A program made the translations under genes and the position numbers. Positions 32,420 through 42,756 of a stretch of 64,000 bases of DNA are shown here, in pieces (the stretch's first letter is position 1; every line of letters begins with the position of its first letter). Source of the stretch: Planctomycetota bacterium (GTDB lineage Bacteria > Planctomycetota > MHYJ01 > WSZJ01); contig JBBTCT010000001.1 in assembly GCA_038060895.1 (NCBI GenBank), forward strand, positions 32,001-96,000, given 5' to 3'. The notes under the pieces are model-generated. The model did not search any database. It saw only the letters and a program-made list of their open reading frames with translations, and was not told where the DNA came from.

Positions 32420-35400
32420 CTAGTACTTGTCCACGTACTTGAGAAGCTCGCCCAGGATTCCGAGCAACAGGGCCTTCTCCGCGTCGGCGAGGGCGGGCCA
32501 GGACTGCGACGCCAGCCACGCCGTGCTGCCGGGCTCCGCGGCCTTCGCCGCTTCGAGATCGGCGCGCCCCTCGGCGTCGCGCCCCGCGCGCAGGCGCATG
32601 AGGCCGCGGTGAAACAGCGCCCGGGCGCGAGCGGCCGCTTCCTTCTCGCCGCACAGGTCCAGCGCCCGTGCGTACAGCGCTTCGGCTCTCGCGCCGTCGC
32701 CGAGAAGAAATGCGCCGCCCGCGGCCGCGAGGAGTTCGGGGAGAGTCTCGTCGCGGGGCTTGAGCAGCCTCGGGGCGGCCTCGCCGCTGAAAACGCGGAG
32801 CTTGCGGACGCGGACGGCGGAGTAGAAGGGCGTCACGGCGGGGGGGGCCCGGGAGGACAACCGCCCGAAGACTCCCTGCCCGCGAGGGATGGGCGTACCG
32901 AGCGGGATCGCAATGTCGGGCGGAGGATTGTCGCCGTCGAAGTGGAGGCGCGCGCGCTCATCTCCGGGCACGACCTCGAGCGAAACGCGGTACCACGTAT
33001 CCGGGGAGGGCTTCCACGAATCCGGCGGCGGGCCCATGCGATCGGTCGGTGCATCGCCGCCCTCGCGCGCGAGGCGAATGGAGAAGACGGGGAGATTGGT
33101 CGAGCCGTCGGGCTTCAATTGAATCGCAAGCTGGTGGCTTCCGACCGCGAGGCCGAAATGGAAACGGCTCTCCCATTCGATCCGCGGGATCTGCATTTCC
33201 CATTCGAAGCGGATCGGCCCGCCGGCGTACTCGAACGCGAGGCCGGCGTTGAAGGCGTCGGAGCGGTGGGCACGGATCTCGAGCGCGTCGCCGGAGGGCG
33301 CGCAGGTGAGCGGCATCTCCGTCGCGAACGATTTCCCGTCGAGGAAGCGATCGAGGCGGATGCGCTCGGTCAGCGCGGACGCGGCGGAGGACCACGCAAG
33401 GCGGTGTTCCTCACGGCGCCGCTCGACCGGGTCGAGCCCCGGCATCGCCAGCAATTCGGAAGAGATCCTCGCGAGCGCCGCCCAGTCCCCCGCTTCCTGA
33501 AGGCAGTTCGCCAGCGCGCGCACGACTTCCTCCGCGCGGTCCTTCACGGAATCCAGCGCCTGCGCCGCTTCCGACCACCGCTTCTGCTCCATCAACGCGA
33601 GGGCCAGGCCGTGGAAATCACCGGCCTCGCGGGAAGCGACTTCGGCTTCGCTCACCAGTCCGAGGGCGAGGAGCTCGCGACCGGCGGGAAGGGCCGGGCC
33701 CGCAGCGGCAGCGGGAGCGAGGGCGGGCGGTGCGGGTTCGCGCTTTCCGGCGCCGAGGATGCGCAGCATCCGGGACCCCGAGACCTGTTCGTTGAGGAGG
33801 ATCTCGTCGTCCCCGTCGCCGTCGACGTCGGCGATGCCCGCGACGCGGACGCGCCCGCGGGCGAGCGTGCGGGGCGAAGAGGCGGGGGCGTCGAGCGAGA
33901 GAAGACTCACGAGGAAATCGTCGTGCTCGCCCGAAATGCTCCTGGCCTGCGTGACGAGCCAGGTCCGGCCGCCGATCTTCGCCTTGTCCAGGTAGACGTA
34001 GCGGTACGGAAGCTGTGCCGGGGGCGCAAAGAGGACGGGCTGCCCGATTTTCCCGGCGGCTTCGATGCGCAGTTCGTGAATTCCGTCGTCGATGACGGGA
34101 AAATCCCGGTCAACGCCGGCCTCGCGCAGCACCTTGCGGTCGGCCTCCGGGCAGAAGCTGACGAACAGGACCCTTCCGTCCTCGAGCCTCAGGAACCGCA
34201 GCGCCAGGCAGTGCGCGAACGCTTCGAGGCGCTTCCACTCCCGCGCCTCCCCGTCCCAGCGCACCAGCCAGATCTGCCAGTGGTTCCACGCTCCCAGGCT
34301 GACGAGCACTTCGGGGCCCGGCTCCGGGTGGAAATCGCCGGCGAGAAGCGCGTCGATCTGGCTGATGCCTCCGTTCGACTTCGAGAGCTTCGTGTCGCTC
34401 ACGACCTCGATCGATCCGCCCGGCGCGAGGCGCACGACCATGAAGCTGCGCGTGAAGTAATGGATGCCGGCCAGGAGCTCGACGCGCCCGTCTCCGTCGA
34501 TGTCGGCCACATGAAGAGCCGAGATTCCCGCGGTGAGGTCCACGCGGCCGCGGGGCAGGAAGCGGCTGCCGTCGAAAGTCCAGGCCGCGAGGTAGCCGGT
34601 GTGTTCGTTCGCGTTGCCACAGCCGATGACGACTTCGGGGCGCATGTCGCCGTCGAGATCGGAAACGAGCAGGCCCGACTCCCGTGCGTTGGCGAGCGGC
34701 GGAAGTTCCAGCGACGCCGCACGCCGGAACGCCGCCCCGGTCCCCCGGTAGTACGCCAGCTCCCCGCCGTCCATGACCAGCATGTCCACGCGCCCATCCC
34801 CGTCGAGGTCCTTCAGCGCAAACTTCTCTCCCGGCGACCGCTGCTCCGTGACGGGAAGCAACCCGGCCAGCACCCCCGCCGCGGCCCGGGCTTCCGCCAC
34901 CGTCTCCGCCCGGGACCGCGCGTCCGCCATGACCGCTTCGTACGCCGCCAGCGCGTTCGCGTGCTCACCCCGGTCGTCGAGAATCCGTGCGATCCGGAAG
35001 CGCGCCTCGGGTGCGCGCGGCGATTCGGGAAAACGGTCGAGCAGGGCGCGAAACGCGCCGCTCGCGCTGGCCGCGACCGATTTCTCCTCGTAGGCGGCGC
35101 CCATCTCAAAGAGCGCTTCCGCCGCGACGTCCCGGTCGGGCGCGGTGTCGATCGCGGCGCGCCAGGCGCGGGCGAATTCGAGTTGCGCGGCGGCGCGTGC
35201 CTTCGCGTCGCCTCCCGCCGCGAATGCGCGCCCGGCTACGAGGCGCGCGCGGGCGAGAGCGTGCTTCTCCCCCTTCGAAGCGGCCTCGCCGTATTTCGCC
35301 ACGTGCGCCAGCGCAAGGTCGCGCGCTTTCGACGCGTCGCCGGCTGCCAGCGCGGCTTCGGCTTCCTTGAGCAGCAGCGCGGAAGCGGTCTCGCGGCCGG

Positions 35401-36565
35401 CCCGCTCTTCGCGCGCCCTCCGCTCGTCGAGATTTCGCCGAAAGGAGGGCCACGCCGCGGCGGCCACGATGGCGAGAAGCGCCACGAACGCGACGGAGGC
35501 GACGGCGCGGTGGCGCCGCAGCGACTTCATCGCGAGGTAGGCGAAGCTCGGCGGGCGCGCGCTGATCGGCTCGCCATCGAGCCAGTGCGTCAGGTCCTCG
35601 ACCAGCGCCGCGGCCGTCGCGTACCGGCGCTCGCGGTCCTTCTCCAGGCATTTCAGCACGACAGTCTCGAGGTCCGCGTCGATCCGCCGGTCGATTTTCC
35701 GCGGGGCCGGCGGCTCAGCCGTCAGCACGGCATTCAGCAGCTCGCCGAGGTTCGCGCCATCGAACGGCGGCCGCCCCGTCAGCAGTTCGTACAACGTGGC
35801 GCCGAGCGCGTAGATGTCCGCACGCGCGTCCACCGCTTCCCCTCGCGCCTGCTCCGGCGGCATGTACGCGGGCGTGCCAACGAGGACGCCGGTGATGGTG
35901 AAGTGGCTTGCGGACTCGATCGGCCGGGCGAGGCCGAAGTCCATGACGTAGACGTGCCACGCCGGCGTCGCGCCGGATTCCGGACGACCCGCGGCCGATT
36001 GCGCGCGCCGCGCGACCATCACGTTGTCCGGTTTCAGGTCGCGATGCACCACGCCCTGCTCGTGCGCGTACGCCACCGCCCGCGCCGCGTCCCGCACGAG
36101 CATCGCCGCCAGCCGCTGGTCGCCGCGCGGCGTCTTCCGAAGCGTCTCCCCGTCCACGAACTGCATCGCGATGTACTGCCGTTCCCGGTCTTCGCCGACC
36201 TCGTGAATCGCCGCGATGTTCGGGTGCGACAGCGCCCCGGCCGTCTGCGCTTCGCGCCGGAACCGGGCCACGTCTTCCTCGCCGAATCCTTTGAGAAATT
36301 TCAGAGCCACCCACCGCCCGATCTGCGTGTCCCACGCCTTCCAGACCTCGCCCATCCCCCCCGACCCCAGCAGCTTCACGCGCACGAATTTCCCGAAGCG
36401 CGCATCGGCGCCAGCCGCCTCGACTTCGGCAGGCGCCGGGAGCGAGGGGCCGGGGCGTGAAGCGGCCCCCGCGGTGCCGCGGAGGACGGTGGGCAAGTTC
36501 GCGGCGGAGCCCGGGACCAGGGTCCTCGCGTCAGAAACGGGCTCGCCGGAAGGGGGGTCAGTCAC
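32420..36565 (-). CDS. Membrane Ser/Thr protein kinase with extracytoplasmic TPR and FG-GAP repeats
   Basis: LGSGGMGEV, VALKFL, HRDLKPDN, DFGLA and GTPAYMPPEQ motifs; TM segment; DLDGDG repeats. Confidence 0.93.
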   Translation of the reverse strand: MTDPPSGEPVSDARTLVPGSAANLPTVLRGTAGAASRPGPSLPAPAEVEAAGADARFGKFVRVKLLGSGGMGEVWKAWDTQIGRWVALKFLKGFGEEDVARFRREAQTAGALSHPNIAAIHEVGEDRERQYIAMQFVDGETLRKTPRGDQRLAAMLVRDAARAVAYAHEQGVVHRDLKPDNVMVARRAQSAAGRPESGATPAWHVYVMDFGLARPIESASHFTITGVLVGTPAYMPPEQARGEAVDARADIYALGATLYELLTGRPPFDGANLGELLNAVLTAEPPAPRKIDRRIDADLETVVLKCLEKDRERRYATAAALVEDLTHWLDGEPISARPPSFAYLAMKSLRRHRAVASVAFVALLAIVAAAAWPSFRRNLDERRAREERAGRETASALLLKEAEAALAAGDASKARDLALAHVAKYGEAASKGEKHALARARLVAGRAFAAGGDAKARAAAQLEFARAWRAAIDTAPDRDVAAEALFEMGAAYEEKSVAASASGAFRALLDRFPESPRAPEARFRIARILDDRGEHANALAAYEAVMADARSRAETVAEARAAAGVLAGLLPVTEQRSPGEKFALKDLDGDGRVDMLVMDGGELAYYRGTGAAFRRAASLELPPLANARESGLLVSDLDGDMRPEVVIGCGNANEHTGYLAAWTFDGSRFLPRGRVDLTAGISALHVADIDGDGRVELLAGIHYFTRSFMVVRLAPGGSIEVVSDTKLSKSNGGISQIDALLAGDFHPEPGPEVLVSLGAWNHWQIWLVRWDGEAREWKRLEAFAHCLALRFLRLEDGRVLFVSFCPEADRKVLREAGVDRDFPVIDDGIHELRIEAAGKIGQPVLFAPPAQLPYRYVYLDKAKIGGRTWLVTQARSISGEHDDFLVSLLSLDAPASSPRTLARGRVRVAGIADVDGDGDDEILLNEQVSGSRMLRILGAGKREPAPPALAPAAAAGPALPAGRELLALGLVSEAEVASREAGDFHGLALALMEQKRWSEAAQALDSVKDRAEEVVRALANCLQEAGDWAALARISSELLAMPGLDPVERRREEHRLAWSSAASALTERIRLDRFLDGKSFATEMPLTCAPSGDALEIRAHRSDAFNAGLAFEYAGGPIRFEWEMQIPRIEWESRFHFGLAVGSHQLAIQLKPDGSTNLPVFSIRLAREGGDAPTDRMGPPPDSWKPSPDTWYRVSLEVVPGDERARLHFDGDNPPPDIAIPLGTPIPRGQGVFGRLSSRAPPAVTPFYSAVRVRKLRVFSGEAAPRLLKPRDETLPELLAAAGGAFLLGDGARAEALYARALDLCGEKEAAARARALFHRGLMRLRAGRDAEGRADLEAAKAAEPGSTAWLASQSWPALADAEKALLLGILGELLKYVDKY

Positions 36566-37938: not shown

Positions 37939-38010
37939 AGCTGGCCATGGGGATCGAACCCACAACCTGCGCTTTACGAAAGCGCTGCTCTACCATTGAG
38001 CTAGGCCAGC
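37939..38010 (-). tRNA. tRNA-Thr(CGT), CCA not encoded
   Basis: Reverse complement GCTGGCCTAGCTCAATGGTAGAGCAGCGCTTTCGTAAAGCGCAGGTTGTGGGTTCGATCCCCATGGCCAGCT forms a full cloverleaf with anticodon CGT. Confidence 0.97.
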
Positions 38011-38089
38011 AATTGTCTCGGAATCTTAGAGGGAAATCGGTGCGAGTCAAGGGCGCCGTGACGTCCGGCGGCAGTACCATTCCTCGCGC

Positions 38090-39631
38090 ATGCACGCCGA
38101 GACCGCTTACCTTTTCCGCCACGCTCTCCTGCGCGACGCCGCGTACCAGCTCCAGCTCCCCGGCGACCGAGCGCGGATGCACGAGATCGCATTTGAGGTG
38201 CTCGAAGATTTCGCCGGCGGCCGGCCGCCGGAGCCGCCGGGCGCGGCCGAGGAAAACTCGGCCGTCACTCCCCACGCAGCCGATCCCTTTGCGTTCGAGC
38301 TCGCCACCCATGCCCGCCTGGCGCGCACAGCCGCGTCCGCGGACAGGACGGCGATGGACGCCGCGCTTCGCCTCTACCTCCGGCGCGGCGCCGAGCATTC
38401 AGAACGGGTTTTTCAGTCAGAAGCGGCCGTCAGCCTCTGGCAGCAGCTCGCGGAAGTTCAGCAGGGCGTGGAATGCGCCGAGGCGCTTCGAAGGGCCGCA
38501 GCCGCCGCCCACCAGGCCGGATGGACCCGGCTCGCGGAGCCGCTCTATCGCCGGGCGGCGGCGATGTTCCGGGACTTTTGCGCGCGGCGGAACGAGGGAC
38601 ATGCCCTGATCGGCGTCTCCGACCTGTGCCGCATGACGGCCCGGGTACCCGAGGCCGAGAGGGTGCTGGAAGAGGCGCTCGGGATATTCCGGGAGATCGG
38701 CGACAAGCGCCTGAAAGGTGTCGTTCTCGGAAGTCTCGGGAGCATTTTCCGGGCGACCGGGCGACCCGGGCGGGCGCTCGCGAATTACGAGCAGGCGCTG
38801 TCGCTCCATGTCGAGACGCGCGACCGCCACAGCGAGGGCGTCTGCCGCGCGAGCCTGGCCCGGGCGTGGCAGGATGCGGGACGCCTTCTGGAGGCGGAGG
38901 AGGGGCTCGAGCGGGCCCTTGCGATTCACCGCGAGCTGGGAGAGAAACGCTTTGAAGGCATCGTCCTGGGCAGCCTTGGGGTGCTCCGCCAGAAGACGCG
39001 ACACTTCGAGGAAGCAGAACGGACTTACCGTCACGCGCTGGCGCTGCTCGGGGAAACCGGTGACCGGTTCTTTGAAGGCGTTGCGCTCGGGAATCTCGCG
39101 GGGCTCCTCGTGTTCCTGGGCCGTTTCGAAGAATCGGAGGCGCTGCTTGTGCGCGTGCTTCCTTTCCACCGGGAATACGGCGACCGGCGCGGCGAGGGCA
39201 TTGCGCTGGGGCGTCTGGCCAGCGTGTCCCAGGGGATGGGTCGGCTCGAGCATGCGGAGAAACTCGCGCAGGAAGCGGTCGCCATTCATCGTGAAGTCGG
39301 GAATCGGGCGCACGAAGCGTCGGACCTCGAGGTGCTGGCCTTCATCGTCGAGGAATCGGGCCGGCATGAGGAAGCTCTGTCCTGCCTGAGGCAAGCGGCG
39401 GAGATCTACCGGCGGATCGGCGACCGCGATGGCGAAGGCGGCAATTCCTGCGACTTCGCCACGCTGCTCGTGGCGTCGGGTCGTGTGGACGAAGCACGCG
39501 CGGCGTGGTCCCGGGGCGTCGCGATTCTGCTGGAACTGGGCGACCGGGGCCAGGTCGAGCGGAAGTCCGCGCGCCTGCGCGATGTGTGCGCCGGGGCGGG
39601 AGTTCCTCCCTTTCAAGCGCCGGACGCATGA
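38090..39631 (+). CDS. TPR protein starting with a STAND-type winged-helix motif, paralog 1
   Basis: Starts MHAETAYLFRHALLRDAAYQLQLPGDRARMH; about 40-aa MalT/LGN-like repeats (GEKRFEGIVLGSLG...). Confidence 0.9.
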   Translation: MHAETAYLFRHALLRDAAYQLQLPGDRARMHEIAFEVLEDFAGGRPPEPPGAAEENSAVTPHAADPFAFELATHARLARTAASADRTAMDAALRLYLRRGAEHSERVFQSEAAVSLWQQLAEVQQGVECAEALRRAAAAAHQAGWTRLAEPLYRRAAAMFRDFCARRNEGHALIGVSDLCRMTARVPEAERVLEEALGIFREIGDKRLKGVVLGSLGSIFRATGRPGRALANYEQALSLHVETRDRHSEGVCRASLARAWQDAGRLLEAEEGLERALAIHRELGEKRFEGIVLGSLGVLRQKTRHFEEAERTYRHALALLGETGDRFFEGVALGNLAGLLVFLGRFEESEALLVRVLPFHREYGDRRGEGIALGRLASVSQGMGRLEHAEKLAQEAVAIHREVGNRAHEASDLEVLAFIVEESGRHEEALSCLRQAAEIYRRIGDRDGEGGNSCDFATLLVASGRVDEARAAWSRGVAILLELGDRGQVERKSARLRDVCAGAGVPPFQAPDA

Positions 39632-41040
39632 CCTCAGCAGAAATCGCCTATTTGTTCAGACACGCCCTCCTGCGCGACGCCGCGTACCAACTCCAGCTCC
39701 CCGGCGACCGCGCGCGACTGCACGGGCTGGCGTTTGCGGCGATCGAGGACGCCTGCGGCGGCCGGCCGGCGCCGCTGCCGCCCCTGGACTACGTCCGTGC
39801 CGCCGCGTTCGCGGGCCACTCGACCGACGCGGTCGCCGCAGAACTCGCCGGGCACGCCCGCCGCGCCGCGTCGCCGGGCCTCCTCCCCGCCGAACGCCTC
39901 TACCTCCGGCGCGCCGGCGAGGTCGCGGAGGCCGCATACCGGCACGGCGCCGCGGCCGAAGCCTGGCTCGCGTTCGCCGGGGTTTCCGGAGGAATGGAAC
40001 AGGCGGAGGCGATCCGCCGTGCGTCCATTGCCGCCAACAGCGACGGCCGCGCGAAAGACGCGGAAGCCCTTCTCCTCCGCGCGATCGACGCCTTCCGGCG
40101 CGCCGGCGCCGCGCTCCAGGAAGGCGTCGCGCACAACAACCTCGCCGCGACCTTGTATGAGACCGGCCGGGGAGCGGAAGCCGAAGCGGAGTACCGGCTG
40201 GCGATCGGCCTCCTGCGCGCCTCCGGGGAAAAGTCGGTGGAGGCAGTGTGCCTGAACGGACTGGCCAGCCTGTGCGCCGGGCTCGGCCGCATCGAGGAAG
40301 CGGAGCGGCTGTACCGGGAGGCTCTGGACCTCGCGCGCGCCATCGGGAACTCCAGGGTGGAGGGAATCATCCTCGGAAATCTCGCGAACCACCTCGGCGC
40401 AACCGGGCGTCCCTCCGAGGGCGAAGCCGTCATCCAGGAAGCGATGGTGCTGCACAAACGCACCGGCAACCGGCGCTTCGAGGGCCTCGCCCTCCTGAAC
40501 ATCGGCACGTTCCGCCAGGAGGGCGGCCGGTCGCAGGAGGCGATCGAAATCTTCGAGAGCGCCCTCGCCGTCTTTCGCGAGACCGGCGACCGCCGGAGCG
40601 CCGGCGCCACCCTCGCGAATTTCGCGGCCGCTCTCTTCAGTTGCGGCGACCGCGACGGCGCGCGGCGGCACCTGGAGCAGGCACTGGCCATCCATCGCGA
40701 GGTCGGCAACCGCCGATCCGAAGCGCTCACCCTCGGCAATCTCGCAATCCTCGATGGCCTCGCGGGACGACCCGCCGCCGCCGAAGATCTCTTCCGCCGC
40801 GCCCTCGCCCTCCATCGCGACCTCGGCAACCGCCGCTACGAGGGCTTCACGTGGTGCGACTACGCGGTCTTCCTCACCTCCCCCCGCCGCATCCCACAGG
40901 CGCGCGCCGCCTGGGCCTCAGGGGTCGCGCTTCTTCGTGAAGTCCGGGACTCGGGGACCCTCGAGCGGAAGACTGAGGAGATGCGGAAGAAGTGCGAGCA
41001 GGAGGGTATCGAGCGGCTGGACGCGGAGGTGGAGTCATGA
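39628..41040 (+). CDS. TPR protein starting with a STAND-type winged-helix motif, paralog 2
   Basis: Starts MTSAEIAYLFRHALLRDAAYQLQLPGDRARLH; ATGA overlap with paralog 1. Confidence 0.9.
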   Translation: MTSAEIAYLFRHALLRDAAYQLQLPGDRARLHGLAFAAIEDACGGRPAPLPPLDYVRAAAFAGHSTDAVAAELAGHARRAASPGLLPAERLYLRRAGEVAEAAYRHGAAAEAWLAFAGVSGGMEQAEAIRRASIAANSDGRAKDAEALLLRAIDAFRRAGAALQEGVAHNNLAATLYETGRGAEAEAEYRLAIGLLRASGEKSVEAVCLNGLASLCAGLGRIEEAERLYREALDLARAIGNSRVEGIILGNLANHLGATGRPSEGEAVIQEAMVLHKRTGNRRFEGLALLNIGTFRQEGGRSQEAIEIFESALAVFRETGDRRSAGATLANFAAALFSCGDRDGARRHLEQALAIHREVGNRRSEALTLGNLAILDGLAGRPAAAEDLFRRALALHRDLGNRRYEGFTWCDYAVFLTSPRRIPQARAAWASGVALLREVRDSGTLERKTEEMRKKCEQEGIERLDAEVES

Positions 41041-41247
41041 GCCGCTCGCGAAGCTGCGTTTGTTGCCGGGCCCGGGCGCGTACGTGCTGAATCCCGGACA
41101 GAGATCACATTCGATTCAGGCCTCGAATCGCAACTTCGGATAGGCAGAAGCGCCCGCGGAGGCAATCCGTCGCGGCGTCCGTGTCCGGCGGCATGATGCA
41201 TTCGGGTGTGACGTGAGACTCAGCCACGCGCCGCTTATCATCCTCTC

Positions 41248-42756
41248 TTGAATTCAGAAACCGCTTACCTGTTCCGTCACGCCATCGTGCGCGACGCCGC
41301 CTATCAACTTCAGCTCCCGGGCGTCCGCGCGCGGCTGCATGGGCTCGCGTTCGCGGCAATCGAAGAGCTGGCCGGCGGCCGGCGCCCGGCGCCGGCTCCC
41401 GTCGGCTCGGGGGAGGGTGGCCGGCTGGCGCCGCACCCGAGTGACGCCTTCGCCGAAGAACTCGCGGAGCACGCCGCAAACGCCGGGGGTGAGGGCATGC
41501 TCGCGGCGCAGCGGCAGTACCTGCGCCGCGCCGCGGAGGCCGCCGACCGAAGGTCGCGCAACGACGCCGCCGAACGACTCTGGCGCCGGCTTGCAGAGCT
41601 GTCAACGGGGACGGAAAAGGGCGCCTCGCTCTGCCGCGGCGCCGCGGCCGCGCGGGTCGCCGGCCGGACGCGAATCGCGGAGCCGATGATCCTGGAGGCG
41701 CTCGCCCTCGCGCGGGCAACGCGTGACCACGCGCTGGAGGCCGTCGCGCGCTCCAGCCTCGGAAACCTCTTCGCGGAAACGGGCCGGACGCGCGAAGCGA
41801 TCCACGCCGCCCGCCGGGCGCTGGTCATGCAGCGGAAGTCCGCCGACCTGCTGGCGGCGGGCGCCACCCTGGGCAACCTCGCGACGCTTTTCCAGGGCGT
41901 GGGCCGCGTGCGCGACGCGGAGCGGCTGTTCGAGGAATCGCTCGAGCTCCTGAAGAGCGACCCGGAGCGGCGGGCCTTCCCGCTTCTGAACCTGGCCGGC
42001 CTCTACAAGCAGACGGGGCGGCTGCGCGAAGCGGAGTCCCTCCTGGACGAGGCGCTGGCGCTTCATCGCCGGCACGGAAACCGCCGCCGCGAAGGAATCG
42101 TGCTGGCGAGCCTCGCGAACCTCTACGGGGAAACCGGCCGGCCCGAGCTGGCCGAGCGCGTGTACCGGGAATCGCTGTCGATCCATCGCGAAACCGGCAG
42201 CCGCCGCTCCGAGGGCGTCGCGCTCGCAAACCTCGCGGGCCACCTGCGGGAAACCCGCCGCTACGCCGAGGCGGAACCCGCCTACGAGCAGGGGCTCGCC
42301 ATCCTCCGCGAAGTCGGCGACCGCCGGCAGGAAGGCATGGTCCTCGCCAATTTCGCCAACCTCCTCCAGGAGTCCCTGCGCTTACCGGAGGCCCGCGCCG
42401 CCTACGAAAAAGCGCTCGCGATTCACCGGGAGCTCGGCAACCGCCCCTTCGAGGGCATCACGCTCGGCAACATGGCCGGGTTGCTTCACGACACGGGCCG
42501 GGACGTTGAGGCCGAGGAGGCCTACCTCCAGGCGATCTCGATTCATCGCGATGTCGGGAGCCGGAGATTCGAAGGGGTGCACCTCGTGGAGTACGGCGTG
42601 TTCCTGCTGAAGCGCGGGCGGGTGCCCGAGGCGAGGGCGAACTGGATCGAGGGATCGGCCATCTTGAAGTCGATCGGGGACACCACGACGCTGGAGGAAG
42701 AAACCGGCGCGATGAGAGAGGAATGTGCCAGGGCCGGGATTTCCGCGTTTGAGTAG
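41248..42756 (+). CDS. TPR protein starting with a STAND-type winged-helix motif, paralog 3
   Basis: TTG start; NSETAYLFRHAIVRDAAYQLQLPGVRARLH; same repeats and C-terminal cap as paralogs 1 and 2. Confidence 0.9.
   Translation: MNSETAYLFRHAIVRDAAYQLQLPGVRARLHGLAFAAIEELAGGRRPAPAPVGSGEGGRLAPHPSDAFAEELAEHAANAGGEGMLAAQRQYLRRAAEAADRRSRNDAAERLWRRLAELSTGTEKGASLCRGAAAARVAGRTRIAEPMILEALALARATRDHALEAVARSSLGNLFAETGRTREAIHAARRALVMQRKSADLLAAGATLGNLATLFQGVGRVRDAERLFEESLELLKSDPERRAFPLLNLAGLYKQTGRLREAESLLDEALALHRRHGNRRREGIVLASLANLYGETGRPELAERVYRESLSIHRETGSRRSEGVALANLAGHLRETRRYAEAEPAYEQGLAILREVGDRRQEGMVLANFANLLQESLRLPEARAAYEKALAIHRELGNRPFEGITLGNMAGLLHDTGRDVEAEEAYLQAISIHRDVGSRRFEGVHLVEYGVFLLKRGRVPEARANWIEGSAILKSIGDTTTLEEETGAMREECARAGISAFE

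Follow-up and report, generated by a model that had tools for sequence, protein, structure and literature searches.

The window analysed here is a stretch of 64,000 nucleotides from a Planctomycetota bacterium (assembly GCA_038060895.1, contig JBBTCT010000001.1, positions 32,001 to 96,000 of the forward strand). At positions 38090-42756 of the window lies an array of three related genes, here called tails, whose proteins consist largely of tetratricopeptide repeats (TPRs). Another gene of the same genome, here called the head, encodes two cyclase domains and an ATPase of the kind found in STAND proteins (signal transduction ATPases with numerous domains), and it ends at the point in the domain order where the tails begin. 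Head and tails are likely to be the parts of a split STAND cyclase, with one head that is completed in trans by interchangeable sensor tails.

Three tail genes in one array

The genes of the array and the features closest to them are these:

38090-39631, plus strand: tail gene 1, 513 amino acids (aa), ATG start; docking block, helical arm, ten TPR pairs and C-terminal cap
39628-41040, plus strand: tail gene 2, 470 aa, defined by open reading frame (ORF), Pfam and alignment
41248-42756, plus strand: tail gene 3, 502 aa, TTG start
38090-38212, plus strand: docking block of tail 1 (residues 1-41), placed by alignment and predicted co-folding
39628-39753, plus strand: docking block of tail 2 (residues 1-42), placed by alignment
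41248-41370, plus strand: docking block of tail 3 (residues 1-41), placed by alignment
38075-38080, plus strand: TACCAT, a -10-like hexamer 9 nucleotides (nt) before the ATG of tail 1 (sequence, family statistics)
41236-41241, plus strand: TATCAT, a -10-like hexamer 6 nt before the TTG of tail 3 (sequence, family statistics)
37939-38010, minus strand: tRNA-Thr(CGT) gene, divergent from tail 1 and 79 nt apart from it

The three proteins are 41-43% identical overall. Residues 1-31 are nearly invariant, and the C-terminal cap is common to all three. Pfam finds TPR families only, with TPR_12 at E values of 7e-39, 6e-34 and 6e-41 for tails 1, 2 and 3, and no NTPase or effector domain in any of them. 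The family TPR_MalT (PF17874) scores 37.8, 43.8 and 50.8 bits, and its gathering cut-off of 45 is passed by tail 3 alone.

An earlier reading of the letters without database searches (the sequence-only reading) had described three tandem paralogues of 470-513 aa with a common start block and cap, lacking an ATPase or effector domain; coordinates, alignment and Pfam agree with it. The two hexamers that it named are seen in the sequence, as is the ATGA in which the start of tail 2 overlaps the stop of tail 1. Tail 2 is probably translationally coupled to tail 1. Because the tRNA gene sits 79 nt upstream of tail 1, there is no ATPase remnant upstream of that gene.

A motif of the winged-helix domain

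STAND proteins have a winged-helix domain (WHD) after the ATPase. The source genome of the window (G000) encodes about 20 single-chain proteins of 1000-1700 aa with the domain order Guanylate_cyc-AAA_16-TPR (for example at C22:372574-375810, C19:75771-79040 and C1:343385-347701). In P0122, a full-length paralogue of 1078 aa, the 13-residue motif near the start of the tails occurs unchanged at residue 574, which is 333 residues after the start of AAA_16. The sequences then part: the motif is followed by QLQLPGDRARLH in the tails and by SLLPKKDRARLH in P0122.

On this comparison of sequences, the motif is part of the WHD that follows the ATPase. The sequence-only reading had spoken of an internal ATPase motif. 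The motif is indeed internal in full-length STAND paralogues such as P0122, but it lies in the WHD after the ATPase, and the wording was imprecise. In substance the same reading was right to see a winged-helix signature between the ATPase and the TPR sensor. The motif probably resembles the winged-helix signature of MalT. As modelled, the docking block would correspond to the second strand of the wing (AYLFRH, with the invariant His), the last helix of the WHD (ALLRDAAYQLQ) and the next helix.

The tail family

The source genome measures 5.4 Mb in 47 contigs and is 86.5% complete. Its six-frame translation holds 61 matches to the 13-residue motif, two of them internal to full-length proteins and 59 of the tail type, a count of N-terminal against internal occurrences that the sequence-only reading had proposed as a check. 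The tail pattern is Y[LVIF]FRHALLRDAAYQLQLPGDRARLH, and at all 59 tail-type loci the motif is followed by QLQLPGDRARLH or a close variant. Intact genes number 52 (417-588 aa, median 505), next to 6 fragments and 1 disrupted copy. The tails are spread over 32 places, as 12 arrays with 39 genes and 20 singletons, and take up 81,384 nt in total, or 1.5% of the genome.

A start codon stands 6-9 codons before the motif at 52 of the 59 loci (28 GTG, 20 ATG and 4 TTG), and the consensus of the start is M-[NH]-[AS]-E-x-A-YLFRH. At 15 of the 59 loci an in-frame stop lies at most 11 codons upstream of the motif, so these tails cannot be longer. Frameshifted ATPase remnants upstream of the copies, which would have spoken against genuine stand-alone genes, are ruled out by the tRNA gene before tail 1, the overlap of tails 1 and 2, and these 15 in-frame stops.

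The seven copies that are not intact, at G000:C2:15066-16924 and at six other loci, are tail remnants. In six of them 25-164 residues are left after the motif and one is disrupted; a pair of 5' blocks arranged head-to-head on contig C2 is among them. The remnants therefore indicate a turnover of tails, with death as well as birth.

Relatives of the tails are numerous. Of 8000 candidates scored in a search of 5.8 billion proteins, 533 reach E<=0.001. Those with a name are entered as 'tetratricopeptide repeat protein' of Planctomycetota metagenome genomes, and most are 430-530 aa long with a query cover of 99-100%. Many of the 23 that were retrieved open with MHAETAYLFRH... In a library of 1.84 billion representatives, tail residues 1-110 have 630 matches at E<=0.001, including 304 at E<=1e-10. 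Among the 150 matches listed, the tail match begins in the first 75 residues in every case and in the first 12 in 125. With tail residues 1-130 as query, no fused relative was found among proteins of 899-2565 aa at E<=0.001, which is weak evidence.

The only invariant columns in an alignment of 56 tails are F9, H11, R15, A18, P24 and H31. Exact matches to the pattern that codes for the motif number 17, 60, 26, 11 and 22 in five carrier genomes, and a reversed control gives 0; the motif is thus much more frequent than chance would allow. The longest relative, P0040 (798 aa, from a metagenome), has the usual N-terminus, and its cap is replaced by a kinase domain of the aminoglycoside-phosphotransferase type (PF01636).

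The head gene

The sequence-only reading had suggested a search for an AAA_16 gene that ends just before the motif. One such gene was found, conserved and co-distributed with the tails:

G000:C15:117791-120196, minus strand: head gene, 802 aa from ATG, outside the window; two Guanylate_cyc domains and AAA_16, no TPR (Pfam)

The head is the only AAA_16 cyclase gene of the genome that lacks TPRs. It is present in a single copy; after it, the best match in the genome has an identity of 25-27%. The protein opens with two class III cyclase domains in tandem. A P-loop AAA_16 NTPase and a helical domain come next, and about two thirds of a WHD close the chain. Its C-terminus, '...EGVLIPADGPQTAAAKS' (also shown as '...LLLESQREGVLIPADGPQTAAAKS'), aligns to the residues of P0122 that come right before YLFRH; hence the head stops where the tails start. 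Judged from the alignment, the stop comes after the first strand of the WHD wing. The domain is divided such that its helices and first wing strand are found in head residues 720-793, and the second strand, His11 and the last helix in the tail.

Orthologues end alike, and the end point is therefore not an accident of one assembly: in all of the 20 orthologues that were aligned, with identities of 52-86% to the first, the head ends 1-14 variable residues past the conserved EGV..P strand of the wing. The 44 orthologue clusters are 58-100% identical, and all have matches to PF00211 and PF13191 only; 42 of them are 773-808 aa long and 2 are partial. None of the 44 has a TPR fused to the head. This search covered lengths of 441-1404 aa and so left room for a fused head-tail of about 1280 aa. 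Beyond the 44 clusters the matches fall to at most 30% identity, and they are proteins of 1000-1400 aa with TPRs.

The P-loop motifs of STAND proteins are a Walker A sequence, GxxxxGK[ST], and a Walker B sequence. AAA_16 is found in the head at E 5e-11, and both 'GEPGLGKT' and 'E.ED.HW.D' are invariant in 20 orthologues. The head thus has the P-loop NTPase of the STAND class. STAND proteins have NTPase and C-terminal repeat sensor on the same polypeptide, and here the two are on separate ones: the head is without TPRs in 44 of 44 clusters, and the tails are without an NTPase.

Asp30 and Asp80 in the first cyclase domain and Asn340 and Arg344 in the second are invariant in head orthologues. By the roles that class III cyclases presumably give to these residues, they would fit one composite active site. 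In a Foldseek search with the head model, the top 24 matches are all catalytic cores of human soluble adenylyl cyclase (sAC), the best at E 2.8e-24 with a TM score of 0.72 on the target over about 456 columns. Sequence and model, including the tandem arrangement of the two domains, point to a head of the soluble adenylyl cyclase type with a C1-C2 pseudo-heterodimer.

Invariant residues are distributed unevenly along the head. Their share is 24% in each cyclase domain, 39% in the NTPase, 28% in the helical domain and 64% (47 of 74) in the partial WHD at 720-793, compared with 32% overall. When the head is modelled alone, the cyclase and NTPase parts are confident, and the predicted local distance difference test (pLDDT) falls below 50 at residues 749-766 and 787-802.

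Links between head and tails

Evidence that the two parts belong together can be provided by an unsplit relative, and the sequence-only reading had proposed to look for one. An orthologue of 1103 aa in G030, a genome from another family of the phylum, has a two-cyclase N-terminus that is 41% identical to the head. In this protein the end of the head and the start of the tail are contiguous, '...ERERVILPEAMRGAAGAEAAYLFRHALMRDAAY...' (also '...ERERVILPEAMRGAAGAEAAYLFRHALMRDAAYHLHLPSARACLH...'), and TPRs follow.

The same order is found with the profile TIGR03903 (TOMM system kinase/cyclase fusion protein), of whose 1267 positions the head covers 382-814 and the tail 828-1054. With 66.5 bits for the head and 24.1 for the tail, both scores are far below the cut-off of 705.75, so the result shows architectural order and not membership.

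The joint occurrence of head and tails was surveyed in 301 genomes across the phylum, with thresholds of E<=1e-100 for the head and E<=1e-8 for the tail N-terminus. The head is found in 15 of the 301, always as one gene, and the tail N-terminus in 16; 15 genomes have both. The sixteenth tail-carrying genome is an 85%-complete congener without a head match. The carriers are the genus of the window (g1, 4 genomes), the family f61 (11 genomes) and G030, where the form is fused and the tail search gave one weak match. Every genome with the split form has more than one tail copy. Both head and tail are absent from the 2 genomes of the same order and the 10 of the same class that were listed.

Conservation is concentrated where the two parts would meet. 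Of the 36 head residues in the predicted interface, 26 are invariant, and residues 1-40 of the tail are the most conserved part of the 52 paralogues. Such conservation of the partial WHD and the tail N-terminus is what would be expected if one surface had to fit about 50 partners.

Head residues 395-802 and tail residues 1-220 were co-folded, a comparison with a candidate ATPase that the sequence-only reading had called for. The interface score ipSAE is 0.65 (runs 0.64, 0.66 and 0.65), against 0.00 for the best of three controls. Partner pLDDT is 85 or higher, and 64% or more of the contacts are common to the runs. The mark set for such scores is reached by 58 of 80 solved complexes and by 2 of 110 mismatched pairs, a calibration that is only rough for the authors' own alignments used here.

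The confident interface joins head residues 728-769 and 787-793 with tail residues 4-22 and 27-41. Tail residues Y7 and F9 touch head residues 789-791, and the tail helix 12-22 lies on the head helix 747-759. The contacts of Y7 and F9 are consistent with strand pairing in the predicted wing. Taken as a model, the co-fold supports binding of the tail to the head.

Structure and diversification of the tails

The AlphaFold model of tail 1 is all-alpha, with 24 helices and a pLDDT of 94.2 (75-78 in the first 20 residues). Helices at 3-20 and 24-41 are followed by a Pro-rich loop, two arm helices and then 20 helices that form ten TPR pairs. Foldseek matches the tail to the peptide-binding TPR superhelices of LGN/Pins and OGT. 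The sequence-only reading had proposed such a search for a STAND sensor, and none was among the matches, which are generic TPR superhelices only.

The cap consists of the last ~45 residues (469-508 in tail 1, window positions 39494-39613), with W..G..L and then ...C.KAGVPPFDE. Its residues A469, W473, L480, C500 and G504 are nearly invariant. It is found in the tails of both lineages and is absent from the fused G030 orthologue and from P0122.

Seven 40-residue repeats were stacked across the 52 paralogues. The conserved scaffold of the repeat consists of R1, R2, E4, G5, L8, G9, N10, L11, A12, L14, G19, R20, A24, E25, A31, L32, R36 and G39. Hypervariable positions (at least 2.9 bits) are 3, 6, 13 and 15-17 in helix A; helix B has two, 21 and 27. 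Because positions 3, 6, 10, 13 and 17 would share a face by helical periodicity, the variable residues should ring the conserved Asn10 on the helix that lines the groove.

Within the genome the paralogues have a median identity of 43% and a maximum of 58%. Between congeners the head is 83-87% identical and the DNA that flanks the array 72-84%. The tails at the syntenic locus are 40-50% identical to those of the window. The best match to tail 1 in three congeners is 49% identical, and no orthologue of a window tail above 50% identity was found in the congeners. Both flanks of the array are conserved there, the left on another contig than the right, and assemblies tend to break at the 5' blocks of tails.

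Over its ~138 nt, the 5' block of the tails has a DNA identity of about 77%, and its synonymous sites vary freely. A search for recent gene conversion or mosaics among the 52 tails (1326 pairs) gave only 3 high-scoring segment pairs (at least 88% identity, at least 45 nt) outside this block, and none between repeats within a gene.

An example of recent change is found in an array of eight tails in G218 (L056, G218:C2:732500-745000). It holds a recent tandem duplication, with one pair 100% identical, and a chimera: the N-terminal 110 residues of this copy are closest to one relative and its TPR part to another. In one pair the TPR regions are the same, with differences at 0 of 194 synonymous sites, and the first 110 residues have a dS of 0.64. 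Another has an identical N-terminus, and its TPRs show a dS of 0.16 and a dN/dS of 0.42 (0.42-0.45). Most tail pairs are saturated for dN/dS, and one recent pair is usable. The array therefore indicates that new tails arise by unequal crossing-over and then diverge fast.

Starts and expression

A hexamer of the form TANNNT ends 5-9 nt before the start in 25 of the 52 tails with an assigned start, in 18 of them at exactly 6 nt. Within 40 nt upstream of the tails there are 27 such hexamers, and 25 of them fall in this slot. By composition 0.5% would be expected there; among crude control ORF starts the share is 219 of 3776 (5.8%). The same arrangement of box and start is seen in tails of a distant family. 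Tails without a box are mostly coupled to an upstream tail, as tail 2 is.

The spacing would suit the -10 box of a leaderless mRNA, and the hexamers are candidate promoters. The crude long-ORF starts of the genome also have TANNNT at 5-9 nt upstream about ten times as often as composition predicts, and leaderless genes may be common in this organism generally.

Reads over the window array come from four runs, all in the form of contigs. Starts, strands and levels cannot be read from them, and gaps in RNA cover are uninformative. Contigs from two metatranscriptome libraries of one sample lie inside all three genes without a mismatch: 38392-38702, 38713-38947 and 39391-39555 in tail 1, 40216-40521 in tail 2 and 41912-42139 in tail 3. 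A further contig, 38018-38176, could derive from a tRNA precursor or from DNA; as it spans the start of tail 1, a leaderless start of that gene gets no support. Together the contigs are a weak hint that the three tails are expressed.

Surroundings of the array and of the head

The window genes around the array look unrelated to it; they encode a TPR protein, a SEC-C motif protein, a DUF4440/SnoaL protein and a Ser/Thr kinase. The kinase (32420-36565, minus strand, 1381 aa) has FG-GAP repeats and TPR-like regions. Its gene is the second one upstream of the array, and nothing that would link it to the tails was seen. The metagenome runs that carry the window stretch are from groundwater and aquifers only, in small shares that allow no conclusion on habitat.

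Beside the head lies a gene for a kinase with a domain that binds cyclic nucleotide monophosphates (cNMPs):

G000:C15:120364-121746 (L030:12365-13747), plus strand: Ser/Thr kinase with cNMP-binding domain, 460 aa, divergent neighbour of the head

A tail gene is located 1.5 kb beyond this kinase, and a protein resembling extracytoplasmic function (ECF) sigma factors, with a PDZ domain, is encoded downstream of the head. The kinase is 84% identical in G229 and was not found in the head loci of f61; the ECF-like gene is likewise kept in G229 only. The neighbours of the head in G168 look different, judged from ORF starts only. It is a plausible inference, for this genus only, that the kinase reads the signal of the cyclase.

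A proposed split receptor and its alternatives

The sequence-only reading had proposed free-standing sensor halves that would join, in trans, an ATPase or effector with a gene of its own, and the complementary head lends this idea support. In the split STAND cyclase set out above, a tail would dock on the head by fragment complementation within the WHD and so rebuild a complete STAND receptor. About 50 tails with differing TPR groove surfaces would compete for the single head. Each tail would have a different ligand specificity, most likely for peptides or proteins. A ligand on the docked tail would control the NTPase switch and thereby the synthesis of a cyclic nucleotide, and in this genus the cNMP-binding Ser/Thr kinase may be what reads the signal. 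Observed are the matching ends of head and tails, an orthologue without the split, the joint occurrence of the two parts and the pattern of conservation; the docking is predicted by modelling; and we infer the ligands, their diversity, the regulation and the output.

Several points weigh against this reading. The genomes in which head and tails co-occur represent two lineages (g1 and f61) and one fused case, and kin are not independent; descent from one fission event could explain much of the pattern. Head and tails are mostly unlinked, with one tail near the head in the genus and none in the f61 loci examined. One head against about 50 tails is a problem of stoichiometry that the model does not solve. 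Nor does the model explain the C-terminal cap, which the fused orthologue lacks, or why the distribution over two classes is patchy. The result of the co-fold may mirror the likeness of the winged-helix fold, because the two parts are one domain in the single-chain relatives. Positive selection is not shown, since the usable pair has a dN/dS of 0.42-0.45 in its TPR region, and the fast divergence of the tails could be relaxed constraint. The contigs that hint at expression are short, and RNA libraries may contain DNA. Finally, the kinase is kept beside the head only within the genus.

Alternatively, the tails may be decoys or competitive regulators that interfere, through their WHD fragment, with the ~20 full-length cyclase-AAA_16-TPR proteins or with each other and form no productive receptor with the head. 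The sequence-only reading had listed decoys as an option, and the data are compatible with it: full-length paralogues are many, P0122 has the identical 13-residue motif, and the tails outnumber the head about 50 to 1. The full-length paralogues, however, own a complete WHD, so there is no vacancy for a tail to fill, and the tails differ from P0122 after the motif. Decoys are unlikely, for they would leave unexplained why a highly conserved head is truncated at the complementary point, as is kept in 44 clusters, why its partial WHD is conserved more than any other part of it and why tails are distributed only with the head. It could also be that an old gene fission left head and tails behind as independent genes, the tails serving as TPR scaffolds and the cyclase being constitutive or otherwise regulated, with no contact between them. 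The mostly unlinked genes, a co-occurrence across two lineages that could be inherited, and a head-tail contact supported by a model only would all suit leftovers. Even so, this account appears decidedly unlikely. A relic would not be expected to stay the most conserved part of both partners across two classes, with six N-terminal positions invariant in 56 tails and 64% of the partial WHD of the head invariant; moreover, that partial WHD has a pLDDT below 50 alone and yet takes part in the confident interface of the co-fold.

A last possibility, also raised by the sequence-only reading, is that the tails are silent cassettes, which recombine through the 5' block into an expression site behind the head and give full-length variants in a subpopulation. 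The 5' block is common to all copies, and chimeric tails have been formed in G218 by unequal crossing-over within the array. Against cassettes, the block has only about 77% DNA identity, with no more than 3 high-identity patches outside it among 1326 pairs. The copies also have starts of their own, at 52 of 59 loci, with a -10-like box at 25 of those 52. The gene downstream of the head is ECF-sigma-like and not a tail, and none of the 44 head clusters is fused to a TPR. Two DNA runs, which cover the window array and not the head locus, contain no well-supported joints over the array; two joints in X2 (side 20) are too weak. Cassette recombination is hardly credible on these grounds.

The split STAND cyclase, with tails that complete the head, may have a wider role. 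It may form a germline-encoded receptor repertoire, in which one invariant head is armed, through complementation within its WHD, by dozens of independently transcribed and fast-diversifying tails and one second-messenger output serves many protein ligands, such as those of phages or other non-self. This extension is tentative and more doubtful than the split itself. By analogy, such a repertoire would be a prokaryotic counterpart of sensor/helper immune networks, reached by splitting one domain.

Relation to known systems

STAND cyclases are a known kind of protein. The cut inside the WHD, combined with a single conserved head and dozens of diversifying tails, is not described in the literature searched: no account of a split head/tail STAND protein or of this TPR family was found there, a search that included the accessible part of PMC7159879 and lay outside supplementary files.

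The closest single-chain relatives are the Guanylate_cyc-AAA_16-TPR proteins such as P0122 and the G030 orthologue. The mycobacterial cyclases of the Rv0386 type are further single-chain proteins of this kind. P0122 and the G030 orthologue have the same domain order and the winged-helix motif at the junction of the sensor with the nucleotide-binding oligomerization domain (NOD). In contrast to the split form, everything is in cis, with one sensor per ATPase, and the cap (...C.KAGVPPFDE) is missing.

The full-length soluble cyclase sACfl (ADCY10) has tandem C1-C2 cyclase domains as in the head, and both cyclase domains of the fused G030 orthologue match human ADCY10 at E 4e-16 (phmmer). ADCY10 differs in being a single polypeptide, whereas here the chain is cut inside the WHD and the sensor part multiplied ~50-fold; identity is ~21%. 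A STAND domain with a P-loop is predicted after C1-C2 of sACfl (PMC12802110), and the accessible part of that source identifies no regulator of this region.

With MalT and other STAND proteins that have TPR sensors, an assembled head and tail would share the order of P-loop NOD, helical domain, winged helix with its conserved His and repeat sensor at the C-terminus, and TPR_MalT matches the tails. They differ in that neither head nor tails have a DNA-binding effector, and that tail 3 alone passes the TPR_MalT cut-off.

In the networks of plant NRC proteins, many diversified sensors signal via few conserved helpers, as stated in the accessible part of the source (10.1101/090449). The likeness lies in the logic of many tails and one head. 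Plant sensors and helpers, however, are each complete nucleotide-binding leucine-rich repeat receptors (NLRs), whereas tails without an ATPase would complete one domain of the head. The Avs and bNACHT proteins are STAND NTPases with repeat sensors that recognise phage proteins (PMC12803255, in its accessible part); they differ in being single-chain receptors.

Pycsar systems pair a PycC-family cyclase with a neighbouring effector of the TM or TIR kind that binds cNMPs. Models of PycC match the head weakly, at best at E 2.3e-17 over one cyclase domain, which reflects generic class III homology. No Pycsar-type effector was found beside the head, where the neighbour is the cNMP-binding Ser/Thr kinase, and the system is accordingly not counted as Pycsar.

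What a split receptor would mean

STAND and NLR proteins are usually described as single chains, with a sensor that keeps the ATPase in check. If the split reading is true, the tails and the head would be a natural case of a sensor that forms a subunit of its own and can be exchanged, cut off inside the winged helix that bears the conserved His. This would offer a simple route to study how a sensor controls the NOD, as heads and tails could be mixed in vitro, and it would represent a new route to a large bacterial recognition repertoire. For the C-terminal STAND region of mammalian sAC, which is poorly understood, the system would also provide a bacterial relative that is tractable. Several hundred database entries named only 'tetratricopeptide repeat protein' would be flagged as parts of a signalling system.

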